Assembly (NCBI RefSeq): GCF_003334305.1
Contig: NZ_QOWS01000057.1
Source of the DNA: Escherichia coli
Lineage (GTDB): Bacteria > Pseudomonadota > Gammaproteobacteria > Enterobacterales > Enterobacteriaceae
Strand: one strand, 5' to 3'
DNA: 1,849 nt
Shown piece after piece: positions 1 through 1,556 of the stretch. Positions within the stretch are counted from its first letter, which is position 1, and every line of letters starts with the position of its first letter. Made by a program: the position numbers and the translations under genes. The notes under the pieces were generated by a model. It was not told the origin of the DNA. It did not search any database and saw only the letters and a list, made by a program, of their open reading frames with translations.

Positions 1-1095
1 ACCCAACAGACAAGAATCCAGACGGTATACCAGCCGGGAAGCTTCACGCCGCTCCTGAGAATCGAAACAGAGAATGGTGAACAGGCGAAGGCGCGGCACC
101 GTAGCCTGGCGGAGGTGTTGCAGGAGGACACGGGTGTGACGCTACCGGCGGAGCTGGCGGTGATGCTGGGGAGGCTGGAGCGGGAACTGCGGCAGGGCAG
201 CGTGAGTGAAGAAAGCCAGCAGTGGCTTGCGCAGTGCGGGCTGACGGCGGAACAGATGGCCGCGCAACTGGAGGCGGAATACATCCCGGAGAGGAAACTT
301 CATCTTTACCACTGTGACCACCGTGGGCTGCCGCTGGCGCTTATCAGCCCGGAAGGGGAAACGGCGTGGCAGGGGGAGTATGACGAGTGGGGAAACCTGC
401 TGGGCGAGGAAAGCGCGCAGCACCTTCAGCAGTCACTCCGTCTGCCGGGACAGCAGTATGATGAGGAGTCGGGGCTGTACTACAACCGCAACCGGTACTA
501 TGATCCATTGCAGGGGAGATATATCACCCAGGACCCGATAGGGCTGAGAGGTGAATGGAATCTGTATAAATATCCATTAAACCCTGTTCGGTTTATAGAT
601 TCTTTGGGTTTAAAATTCCATGTTAACGGTGATCCAAGTGATTTTAATCAGGCTGTTGAGTATTTAAAACAAGATTCACAAATGAAAGAAACTATAGATT
701 TTTTATCAAGCTCTGAAGAAACTATAAATATAGAGTATATTGAAGGAACCAATGTTAGATTTAATTCGAATAATATGGCGATATATTGGAATAGTAGAGC
801 ATCTTTATTTTGTTCAACTGAATTAAACTCGAAATCACAATCGCCTGCATTAGGTTTGGGACATGAGTTTGCTCATGCGCAGTATTACCTTCTTGATAAG
901 GAAAATTTCATGGCTCTTTTAAGCCGAACAGATAAGAAATATGAGAATAAAGAAGAGGCAAGGGTTATTACAATAATTGAATCGCGTGCGGCGAAAACTT
1001 TAGGTGAGTGTACCAGAGGAGCTCATAGTGGACTGCCTTTTTATCGGGTGGATGGACCGTTGCAGACGATGAAAATAACGGGTACGCCAGAATAG
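1..1095 (+). CDS. Rhs-family polymorphic toxin, 3' portion (5' end lies outside the window): conserved core C-terminus plus variable C-terminal toxin domain
   Basis: Frame 1 is open from base 1 to the TAG at 1093-1095; the track ORF at 115 only reflects the first in-frame start codon. The translation ([27 protein letters not shown]...[16 protein letters not shown]...[35 protein letters not shown]) matches, from memory, the conserved C-terminal end of E. coli Rhs core proteins, including the PxxxxDPxGL hallmark. Sampled 60-nt stretches are about 70% GC before ~550 and about 25% GC after, the classic core/extension architecture. Confidence 0.9.
532..612 (+). other. Rhs core/CT demarcation: DPIGL-(x)17-DSLGL (DPxGL hallmark followed by a degenerate second copy)
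   Basis: Codons 532-546 encode DPIGL and 598-612 encode DSLGL, separated by [17 protein letters not shown]. This parallels the DPxGL-(x)n-DPxGL arrangement at the core/toxin junction of enterobacterial Rhs proteins. The nucleotide composition switches to AT-rich within this segment (~550). Confidence 0.8.
613..1092 (+). other. Variable Rhs C-terminal toxin domain (~160 aa), putative zincin-like metallopeptidase with HExxH motif
   Basis: The AT-rich region after the DPxGL junction encodes [11 protein letters not shown]...[52 protein letters not shown].... HEFAH lies at 862-876. Glutamates about 23-35 residues downstream ([14 protein letters not shown]) could supply a gluzincin-type third zinc ligand. 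The fold assignment is an inference. Confidence 0.45.
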
Positions 1096-1100
1096 TGAGG
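1096..1100 (+). promoter_or_regulatory. Shine-Dalgarno-like sequence (TGAGG) for the downstream immunity ORF, overlapping the rhs stop codon
   Basis: GAGG at 1097-1100 lies 6 nt upstream of the ATG at 1107. The rhs stop TAG (1093-1095) overlaps this region, suggesting translational coupling. Confidence 0.5.
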
Positions 1101-1106
1101 TTTTTT

Positions 1107-1556
1107 ATGATGAAATATTTGATGGTTTTATTGTCTCTATTTTCTGGTTCGGTACTGGGGATGGGGCGAGTGAATGAATTGTGTGGAATAGATAGCGTGA
1201 AAACGATAGAGATAATTAATCTTCCATCGTATGTTACCACGTTAGTTCCGCTTAGCAAGGAAGGTCTTAATGAAATATACAGATATAAAGTGGTGGTGAA
1301 TGAAATTAGCGATCTTTATGCTGGTAAGATAATTGATTTATTGCAAATGAAGTATTTCAGAAAAGAAAAATATAACAATATAAGATGGGGGGTTAGTATC
1401 ATTTCGAAAGGTAATAATAAATGTGAAATTTATTTTGATGCTTTTGGTGAATGTGGAAGTGTGAATGGCATTAACGTGTGTTTTGAAAAAAATGAAATGA
1501 TAGGTTGGATTAAAAAAGAAATCCCTTTGCTGTCGCAAAAAATAGGTGGGCTTTAA
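1107..1556 (+). CDS. Putative Rhs immunity protein (RhsI-type downstream ORF) with a signal-peptide-like or membrane-anchor N-terminus
   Basis: A 149-aa ORF (ATG 1107, stop TAA 1554-1556) lies immediately 3' of the rhs toxin CDS on the same strand and shares its low GC content. This position and size are typical of cognate immunity genes. The N-terminus MMKYLMVLLSLFSGSVLGMG has a short charged n-region and a ~15-residue hydrophobic core. The start is ambiguous: GTG 1095, ATG 1107 or ATG 1110. Confidence 0.7.
   Translation: MMKYLMVLLSLFSGSVLGMGRVNELCGIDSVKTIEIINLPSYVTTLVPLSKEGLNEIYRYKVVVNEISDLYAGKIIDLLQMKYFRKEKYNNIRWGVSIISKGNNKCEIYFDAFGECGSVNGINVCFEKNEMIGWIKKEIPLLSQKIGGL

Follow-up and report, generated by a model that had tools for sequence, protein, structure and literature searches.

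Layout and conservation of the toxin/immunity gene junction in an Escherichia coli RhsH/dsORF-h1 module

The Rhs element and its toxin/immunity module

The analyzed stretch of Escherichia coli DNA (1,849 nucleotides, hereafter the window) contains the 3' end of an Rhs element. The following genes and gene fragments were distinguished:

1–546, + strand: 3' end of the conserved Rhs core ORF, terminating with the DPIGL motif (532–546), which marks the core/toxin boundary
547–1092, + strand: Rhs-CT toxin domain, a putative Peptidase_M91-like zinc metallopeptidase (low GC content, weak PF14891 match, HEFAH motif)
1107–1556, + strand: immunity gene dsORF-h1, 149 amino acids, stop TAA 1554–1556, annotated as "RHS element protein dsORF-h1"
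1633–1676, + strand: start of a second rhs core ORF (MSGKPAARQGDMTR...), first ~44 nt only, with equivalents in JP538 and 19KM1831
1817–1849, + strand: beginning of the gene for an ISAs1-family (H-repeat) transposase, so annotated in each of the best E. coli matches

The core ORF carries the existing annotation "RHS element core protein" and matched the NCBIfam profile NF041261 RHS_core (E 7.9e-119), TIGR03696 (E 5.2e-24), and Pfam RHS. The GC content, which is 0.55–0.70 in the core vs. 0.28–0.37 in the tip, drops from ~0.6 to ~0.3 at about position 550. The rhs frame corresponds to ORF 115..1095 and closes at TAG 1093–1095. Downstream of the module, the rhs fragment at 1633–1676 ends at a point of sequence divergence, beyond which the DNA leads up to the ISAs1 transposase gene. 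At the position equivalent to 1633, 76 nt past dsORF-h1, an annotated full-length rhs core gene begins in JP538; the rhs core gene that begins at this position in 19KM1831 is annotated as frameshifted or with an internal stop.

The toxin tip contains an HExxH-type motif, HEFAH, at positions 862–876. Its match to Pfam PF14891 was weak (E 0.002–0.013, below normal significance). At E<=0.1, this family was matched by all 16 aligned toxins (that of the window and 15 homologues), and at E<=1e-3 by 9 of the 16, with the best value being 6.6e-9. The Hafnia homologues of the toxin bear the RefSeq name "M91 family zinc metallopeptidase." A sequence search against solved structures found no relative of the toxin.

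The 153-codon open frame of the immunity gene would have a chance probability of about 1e-6 in DNA with 30% GC. Searches of Pfam, NCBIfam, and PADLOC gave no match for the function of dsORF-h1, and a Foldseek search of its AF2 model against the PDB returned nothing (best E 0.13, TM <0.25). The model had a pLDDT of 83.5, with values below 50 at residues 1–3 and 7–16 and high values from about residue 21. Residues 1–18 (1107–1160) constitute a signal-peptide-like N-terminus, MMK + YLMVLLSLF + SGSVLG, with a hydropathy of 1.6–2.2 over residues 1–12; the mature part has a hydrophobic core and four Cys residues. The signal-peptide call is heuristic and relies on a basic N-region, a hydrophobic core, and small residues at -3 and -1. 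The equivalent N-termini of all seven aligned immunity homologues were signal-like, one of them with a lipobox (VVGC). Immunity homologues at 88, 78, 53, 27, 23, and 18% identity were all located directly behind M91-like toxins, and all of them bear a signal peptide or lipobox. By the same heuristic criteria, the dsORF-h1 product is predicted to be Sec-exported (periplasmic). The fusion to Rhs and the exported partner would imply that the toxin acts on the bacterial envelope and not on a host kinase.

A core ending in DPxGL, a divergent tip, and a co-varying downstream ORF are all present, which places the locus among the Rhs polymorphic toxin/immunity modules. The junction belongs to an already named pair, the RhsH tip and dsORF-h1, and is known in kind. 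Among lineages with a common core, the toxin tip was 76, 68, and 55% identical, and toxin and immunity identities diverged jointly (76/88, 68/78, and 55/53%). The same toxin and immunity genes occur at various chromosomal loci, either following a full-length Rhs core or as orphan modules, and they remain linked in Hafnia, Salmonella, and a metagenome. These varied loci, the orphan modules, and the joint divergence support well the proposal of a preliminary description of this DNA that the two genes move as a single cassette. That description had also presented toxin and immunity genes with almost nothing between them; a pair encoded on the same strand and divided by a very short spacer was indeed found, and the scan of the whole window revealed no terminator-like site.

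Stops, ribosome-binding site, and start codons

Positions 1090–1112 read G AA TAG TGA GGTTTTTT ATG ATG. The elements named in the preliminary description, namely TAG 1093–1095, GTG 1095–1097, GTGAGG 1095–1100, and the ATG codons at 1107 and 1110, are all present at these positions. An identical junction is present in E. coli HS (NC_009800) and ECOR29. The junction includes the following features:

1081–1157, + strand: predicted long-range hairpin, allele-specific and probably not functional (MFE -31.3 kcal/mol, z -2.3)
1093–1098, + strand: tandem in-frame rhs stops, TAG 1093–1095 followed by TGA 1096–1098, read from the sequence
1095–1097, + strand: GTG sharing the G of TAG, an in-frame alternative start judged unlikely (anti-SD pairing upstream of only -3.8 kcal/mol)
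1097–1101, + strand: putative Shine-Dalgarno (SD) element GAGGU, which shares bases with the second stop (-7.1 kcal/mol when paired with the 16S 3' end)
1107–1112, + strand: tandem immunity starts ATG 1107 and ATG 1110 (the PGAP start is 1107)

The second in-frame stop, TGA 1096–1098, was absent from the preliminary description. It is invariant in six sequences from five lineages, and no other element of the junction is as conserved; in a paralogue with 53% identity, TAG is replaced by AAA, leaving TGA as the sole stop. The conserved rhs stop is thus TGA 1096–1098. The heptamer UUUUUUA (1101–1107) was considered as a frameshift site and rejected, because it is located 3' of both rhs stops and therefore no ribosome decodes it in the rhs frame.

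The sequence GTGAGG had been proposed as the SD of the immunity gene. Its GAGG part is a plausible SD for ATG 1107/1110; however, the pairing part is GAGGU (1097–1101) and not the whole GTGAGG. The element was kept in four of the five diverged lineages (-6.3 to -7.1 kcal/mol), with a varying spacer, and was lost in the L002/L022 lineage, where the sequence GAUAU gave -0.2 kcal/mol. An equally good anti-SD match was found in 5% of random 17-mers of cassette composition and upstream of 8% of the ATG, GTG, and TTG codons in the cassette, and the SD strength ranks in the top 8–10% of such start-like triplets; against chance, the match strength taken alone is only suggestive. The L002/L022 lineage retains ATG ATG 12 nt past the stop and was found in a complete genome with full-length Rhs.

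The codons GTG 1095, ATG 1107, and ATG 1110 share one frame (ORF 1095..1556). Codon 1107 is ATA in two lineages, and codon 1110 is ATG or GTG in all five. The distant immunity homologues open with "MK," which fits a start at 1110. The distance from the rhs stop is 11 nt to ATG 1107 and 14 nt to ATG 1110. The earlier wording "essentially no intergenic gap" thus holds in the sense of a very short spacer, but the gap would be zero only from GTG 1095.

If GTG 1095 were the true start, the immunity gene would overlap TAG by 1 nt (UAGUG), and the protein would begin with MRFFMMKY. This codon is the first start of the mechanical ORF, its equivalent is in frame in four of the five lineages, and it is ATG, forming an ATGA overlap, in the 53% paralogue, as well as ATG in the Salmonella copy of that paralogue. 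The additional R, F, and F residues would remain compatible with a signal peptide's N-terminal part. However, a 1-nt insertion in the L002/L022 lineage shifts the equivalent codon out of frame, yet the protein is conserved from MMKY on. In addition, GTG 1095 has no SD upstream, the segment 1098–1109 diverges more rapidly than the coding sequence that follows, 1107 or 1110 is the start chosen by gene callers and PGAP, and the initial MK of the distant homologues also disagrees with the longer protein. We therefore regard initiation at GTG 1095 as very improbable. The result fixes the likely start of dsORF-h1 at ATG 1107/1110, 1110 being the conserved one. Since the predicted signal peptide would be removed, N-terminal proteomics, which cannot map a start that signal peptidase cuts off, would miss the start of dsORF-h1.

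Structure, expression, and possible dependence of immunity on toxin translation

A conserved structure occluding the start region would be expected of a coupled pair, and such a structure was not found. In the hairpin at 1081–1157, immunity codons 5–17 pair with the final rhs codons and the SD, and in the window allele, the SD and the AUG codons are predicted to be mostly paired (probability of being unpaired 0.15 and 0.03–0.25, respectively). This hairpin was missing in the L007, L002, and L003 lineages (z +1.05, +0.86, and -1.1). The local start-codon hairpin had an MFE of -4.7 kcal/mol (z -0.1), so that the ribosome-binding site is essentially unstructured in isolation, and its covariation was matched by 233 of 500 shuffles. 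The alignment fold of the junction was weak (-8.1 kcal/mol), and no Rfam family was detected at the junction at E<=1. A conserved occluding RNA structure was rejected, because the long hairpin is lineage-specific and the local one does not outperform shuffled sequences.

Short spacing is the rule in the Rhs toxin/immunity pairs compared by sequence. The K-12 Rhs pairs are spaced by +20, -29, -1, +39, and -4 nt, dsORF-e4 by +11 nt with an AGGAGG, and members of the immunity family by +2, +8, +11, and +28 nt; a distant metagenomic homologue has a 2-nt gap without an SD. Both the junction and the immunity gene remain intact downstream of orphan toxin fragments and, in strain JP538, downstream of a toxin cut by ISEc1 47 nt ahead of the stop.

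The preliminary description had proposed translational coupling of toxin and immunity. The geometry permits it: the stop-to-start distance of 11 or 14 nt (or the 1-nt overlap for GTG 1095) is within coupling range. Dependence on toxin translation was not borne out, given the own SD of the immunity gene, the lineage-specific hairpin, and the junctions behind orphan or truncated toxins. In its strict form, coupling would mean that all or most immunity translation comes from ribosomes that have terminated at TAG/TGA and reinitiate at AUG 1107/1110, or from ribosomes whose movement opens the hairpin at 1081–1157, and immunity output would track toxin translation. Consistent with this, a ribosome terminating 11–14 nt ahead of the start covers the SD, the predicted hairpin hides the SD and AUG codons of the window allele, and the pair is intact in the SD-less lineage and in the metagenomic homologue with the 2-nt gap. 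Furthermore, the orphan rhsI of Salmonella LT2, which lies behind an untranslated orphan toxin, is reportedly not expressed under normal laboratory conditions (PMC3967940), and this silence fits dependence on upstream expression. However, four of the five lineages keep an SD, the hairpin is missing elsewhere and the local one is insignificant, the gaps in the family range from +2 to +28 nt with no fixed overlap, and the junction is retained behind orphan fragments and the IS-truncated toxin. The predicted export of the immunity protein would make matched amounts of toxin and immunity unneeded. There is also a CDI precedent for independent immunity translation, since cells are protected by an orphan cdiI that has an SD and start of its own, even though the orphan toxin protein is undetectable (PMC3150448). 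Taken together, obligate coupling seems unlikely. Co-translation of immunity with the toxin had also been offered as the functional logic of the junction, and the export signal in every family member argues against this: if the immunity protein is exported, no neutralizing logic is evident in making it together with a cytoplasmic toxin. No relevant paper on translational coupling of Rhs toxin/immunity pairs was found in the literature library searched.

Layout, conservation, gene linkage, and the lack of a conserved occluding structure are observed directly and point to a compact, ordinary junction. The immunity cistron probably has its own ribosome-binding site, with facultative coupling, so that toxin translation would not be strictly required. 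We infer co-transcription, the start used, and the share of reinitiation as follows. The toxin end of rhs and dsORF-h1 would be carried on one transcript. Translation of rhs would stop at TAG 1093–1095, with TGA 1096–1098 as a backup. The immunity ribosome-binding site would comprise GAGGU 1097–1101, a U-rich spacer, and AUG 1107 and/or AUG 1110, the latter position being the only start common to all lineages. Free 30S subunits would start unaided at the immunity AUG, and the 11–14 nt between stop and start are few enough that ribosomes terminating on rhs may also reinitiate there, which makes the coupling facultative. In the L002/L022 lineage, which has no SD, either reinitiation or AU-rich, SD-independent initiation must carry expression.

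The observations that count against a facultatively coupled junction are the SD-less L002/L022 lineage, the predicted pairing of the SD and AUG codons in the window allele, and the reportedly silent rhsI of LT2. In SD-less lineages (19KM1831 type, TAGTGATAT...ATGATG), and perhaps in the window allele through its private hairpin, the immunity gene might be translated only by post-stop restarts, which we consider doubtful. If so, immunity output would be hard-wired to toxin translation, and copies that are orphaned or truncated by an IS would stay silent as a reserve, to be activated by recombination behind a translated rhs.

Transcription from within rhs is another possible source of immunity expression. 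An independent promoter in the AT-rich toxin DNA, or in the core just before DPIGL, could drive the immunity gene, making its expression independent of full-length rhs; this is compatible with facultative coupling. Intragenic promoters are frequent in AT-rich horizontally acquired DNA, and a looser scan of 560–1106 gave weak -10-like sites at 736, 782, and 969. In Salmonella Typhimurium, the internal promoter P2, which lies 89 nt ahead of the sequence encoding PxxxxDPxGL, drives expression of rhs-CT and rhsI at up to 100-fold above that of the delivery part, and two further internal rhs promoters are active (PMC7043789). However, the scan of the + strand detected nothing promoter-like upstream of 1107, and the looser scan found five weak sites in total, below the shuffle expectation (7.6 +/- 2.6). 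The Salmonella-type P2 (-35 TTGACG, -10 TACAAT) is not conserved in the window, where the equivalent hexamers are ATGATG (458–463) and TACAAC (481–486), the latter without the final T of TACAAT. An internal promoter is thus possible but not the expected case.

The significance of the result is small and goes little beyond housekeeping. If strict coupling were true, it would explain silent orphan immunity genes, as in Salmonella LT2; recombination onto a translated rhs would then switch on toxin and immunity together, which would be a modest but useful point for polymorphic toxin biology.

Comparison with known systems

Classical translationally coupled pairs, e.g., in the trp operon, have ATGA or TAATG stop/start overlaps. 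As in the window, the SD of classical coupled operon pairs overlaps the upstream stop (UGAGG) and the start is within reach of the terminating ribosome. Unlike in such pairs, the favored start in the window is 11–14 nt downstream, the SD is of moderate strength, and most lineages show no structure at the site.

The HExxH motif is common to the window toxin and Peptidase M91 (NleD/HopH1-type effectors, PF14891). In contrast to these effectors, the window toxin forms the tip of an Rhs core protein, and its partner is an immunity protein predicted to be exported.

The core segment before DPIGL that is homologous to the P2 region of Salmonella Typhimurium corresponds to positions 439–546 of the window (Starsta et al., 2020, PMC7043789). 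The idea that tip and immunity genes are expressed together as a bicistronic unit, without need of the full-length gene, is the same as in the P2 system, whereas the -35 and -10 hexamers are degraded in the window.

The layout of the window is the same as that of the Enterobacteriaceae rhs-CT/rhsI modules, such as K-12 rhsA-yibA and rhsC-ybfB and the Dickeya and Salmonella Rhs (PMC3150448, PMC3967940). The common features are a DPxGL-ended core, an AT-rich tip, an adjoining small ORF on the same strand, and orphan copies; the +11 nt spacing in the window compares with -29 to +39 nt in the K-12 Rhs pairs. Nothing in the window is categorically different from these modules, and the RhsH/dsORF-h1 allele has an M91-like toxin and an immunity protein that is predicted to be exported rather than cytoplasmic.

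Organization of the toxin–immunity junction

The preliminary description had placed a set of stop, ribosome-binding and start signals between the toxin and immunity genes, and every one of them was found at its coordinates. They are listed here with the surrounding features.

1-546: 3' end of the Rhs core, ending in DPIGL at 532-546 (Rhs core model matches)
547-1092: toxin tip with HEFAH at 862-876 (family members match Peptidase_M91)
1093-1095: rhs stop codon TAG
1095-1097: GTG
1095-1100: GTGAGG
1107 and 1110: ATG codons
1107-1553: coding region of the immunity gene dsORF-h1

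The GTG at 1095 and both ATG codons share one frame, -1 relative to rhs, and the spacer measures 11 nt to ATG 1107, the start chosen by the RefSeq pipeline PGAP, and 14 nt to ATG 1110. A second in-frame stop, TGA (1096-1098), lies immediately 3' of TAG and was absent from the description. In addition, the proposed Shine-Dalgarno (SD) function of GTGAGG stood in part: 16S rRNA pairing was found at GAGGU (1097-1101; -7.1 kcal/mol), but not over the whole hexamer. Pairing this strong is reached in 5% of random 17-mers that share the cassette composition and at 8% of its start-like triplets; taken alone, the SD match is only suggestive. The downstream ORF is clearly real, because the chance of an open frame this long is about 1e-6 here and diverged homologues exist.

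We compared the junction across five diverged lineages, the window included.

Lineages compared with the window
L007: immunity 89% identical
L002 and the complete genome 19KM1831: immunity 88% identical
L003-L006, orphan-module lineage: immunity 78% identical
Paralogous cassette, in the same orphan array and in Salmonella: toxin 55%, immunity 53%

TGA 1096-1098 was invariant in all five and was the only stop in the paralogue, where AAA replaces TAG; TGA is therefore probably the ancestral stop. GAGG was retained in four lineages (-6.3 to -7.1 kcal/mol). In the L002/19KM1831 lineage it was changed to GATAT with a one-base insertion (-0.2 kcal/mol), so that a full-length Rhs is followed by a junction with a lost SD and an intact immunity gene. 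This junction reads TAGTGATATTTTTTTATGATG (2591-2616 in the 19KM1831 locus, 2986-3011 in L002). Codon 1107 was ATG in three lineages and ATA in two, and codon 1110 was ATG or GTG in 5/5. Since the insertion shifts GTG 1095 out of frame and the protein is the same from MMKY on, 1098-1106 is a non-coding spacer, at least in this lineage. Spacers of more distant family members differed in length, at 8 nt in Hafnia, 28 nt in a second Salmonella pair, and 2 nt in a metagenomic member; their SD was weak or missing. This variation in spacers and overlaps means that the conserved property of the junction is very close placement on the same strand, with no particular overlap.

Coupling and independent expression of the immunity gene

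The geometry allows the translational coupling that had been proposed: a ribosome halted at TAG would lie over the SD, with the following start codons no more than 11–14 nt away. In the window allele, a predicted hairpin (1081-1157; z of -2.3 against shuffled sequence) forms by pairing of immunity codons 5–17 with the SD and the final rhs codons, the probability of being unpaired being 0.15 for the SD and 0.03–0.25 for the AUGs. The hairpin is lineage-specific, however: the remaining junctions had a mostly open SD and start codons, and folding was no better than in shuffles. A small start-codon hairpin was retained in the alignment, with A-U and G-U pairs throughout (-4.7 kcal/mol, z of -0.1), and its covariation was equalled by 233 of 500 shuffles.

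Other results weigh against obligatory coupling. Most lineages provide the immunity start with an SD of its own, and the intact junction and immunity gene also occur behind orphan toxin fragments without an Rhs body and, in strain JP538, behind a toxin that ISEc1 interrupts just 47 nt short of the stop codon. In the JP538 locus (2991-3511), ISEc1 removed the toxin and spared the junction and dsORF-h1, which leaves a naturally occurring remnant with immunity alone. In CDI, a parallel system, an orphan immunity gene that has an SD and start of its own confers protection even though the orphan toxin protein is undetectable (PMC3150448), which counts for independent translation. The orphan rhsI of Salmonella LT2, reportedly not expressed under laboratory conditions (PMC3967940), counts for dependence on the upstream region. 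So does the E. coli lineage without an SD, where initiation must depend on some other feature. Thus, the observation of the preliminary description was confirmed and its interpretation partly supported: coupling at the junction is probably facultative at most.

An independent promoter had been named as the alternative to coupling. In a consensus scan the + strand upstream of 1107 contained no promoter-like site, nor did the window as a whole contain a terminator-like one, and a looser scan of 560-1106 gave 5 weak promoter sites against 7.6 ± 2.6 in shuffles, so that nothing upstream of 1107 rose above shuffle level. An internal promoter, P2, has been shown experimentally in Salmonella just upstream of the DPxGL-coding sequence (PMC7043789). 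The window segment 439-546 is its homologue with degraded hexamers, ATGATG (458-463) replacing the -35 TTGACG and TACAAC (481-486) the -10 TACAAT, whose final T is lost. As the scans were at or below chance and the P2 equivalent is degraded, the sequence gives no support for an independent immunity-gene promoter, although one may exist.

Toxin tip and probable export of the immunity protein

GC content falls from about 0.6 to about 0.3 after the core and stays low to roughly 1600. Peptidase_M91 matched 16/16 aligned tip sequences at E<=0.1 and 9/16 at E<=1e-3, and Hafnia relatives carry M91 as their RefSeq name; the tip is thus predicted to be a Peptidase_M91-like (NleD/HopH1-type) metallopeptidase. 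A sequence search for a tip relative with a solved structure found none.

Every immunity family member carries a predicted N-terminal export signal, with a lipobox in one Salmonella paralogue. The mature part of the dsORF-h1 protein has four Cys, and its AF2 model (pLDDT 83.5) is confident only from about residue 20. Together, these features indicate that the protein most likely acts in the periplasm, where it would counter toxin that neighbouring cells deliver; its production beside cytoplasmic toxin has no obvious protective role. Because the N-terminus would be cleaved off, N-terminal proteomics would be uninformative on the start. The pairing with a presumably exported immunity protein suggests that the tip probably cuts a bacterial-envelope target, which, if true, would put a fold familiar from host-kinase-cutting effectors to an unusual use. 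dsORF-h1 belongs to an uncharacterised family of predicted exported immunity proteins, always located behind M91-like toxins (E. coli, Shigella, Salmonella, Hafnia, and a metagenome). The family had no match in Pfam, NCBIfam, or PADLOC, nor did Foldseek match the AF2 model to the PDB (best E 0.13).

Genomic distribution and comparison with known pairs

The full 1849 bases recur with 100% identity in many complete genomes of E. coli, and with the full window compared the best match was at least 99% identical in 929 records. Matching stretches are annotated as "RHS element core protein", "RHS element protein dsORF-h1", and "ISAs1 family transposase"; in strain L65 the stretch is found at the rhsE/pptA/nhoA/narZ locus, with a second Rhs element ahead of it. 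The junction region (1000-1200) was present in 1067 of 5426 complete genomes, at least 99% identical in 975 of the 1067. Its loci differ (the rhsE/narZ region, adjoining tssM-yafV, between two rhs genes), it occurs behind full-length cores and in orphan modules, and toxin and immunity diverge in step across lineages. The proposal that the pair moves as a single cassette therefore holds.

Downstream of the immunity gene, and 76 nt beyond its stop, a further rhs core ORF begins (1633-1676; MSGKPAARQGDMTR), preceded by an SD-like AAGGAA (1621-1626). Only its first ~44 nt are present, after which the sequence breaks off into DNA that runs up to the ISAs1 transposase gene (ATG 1817). An annotated full-length rhs core gene begins exactly at this position in JP538, as does one annotated as frameshifted/internal stop in 19KM1831; the ancestral order was thus rhs tip, dsORF-h1, and the next rhs gene in tandem. 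In the orphan array of L003, about five tandem GGCAATA(C/T) copies (1596-1640) lie in the spacer that runs from the first orphan immunity gene to the next orphan toxin fragment, the second of the array. The first such fragment is itself closely preceded by TAGTGAGG (388-395), a repeat of the string at the toxin/immunity junction, which may be a coincidence or a recombination trace.

The gene pair is a standard rhs-CT/rhsI module, already named in RefSeq, with nothing new in kind. An SD overlapping the upstream stop 10–15 nt ahead of the next start is a common layout in bacterial operons. By comparison, toxin/immunity spacing ranges from -29 to +39 nt in the K-12 rhs pairs and is +11 nt, with AGGAGG, at the neighbouring dsORF-e4.
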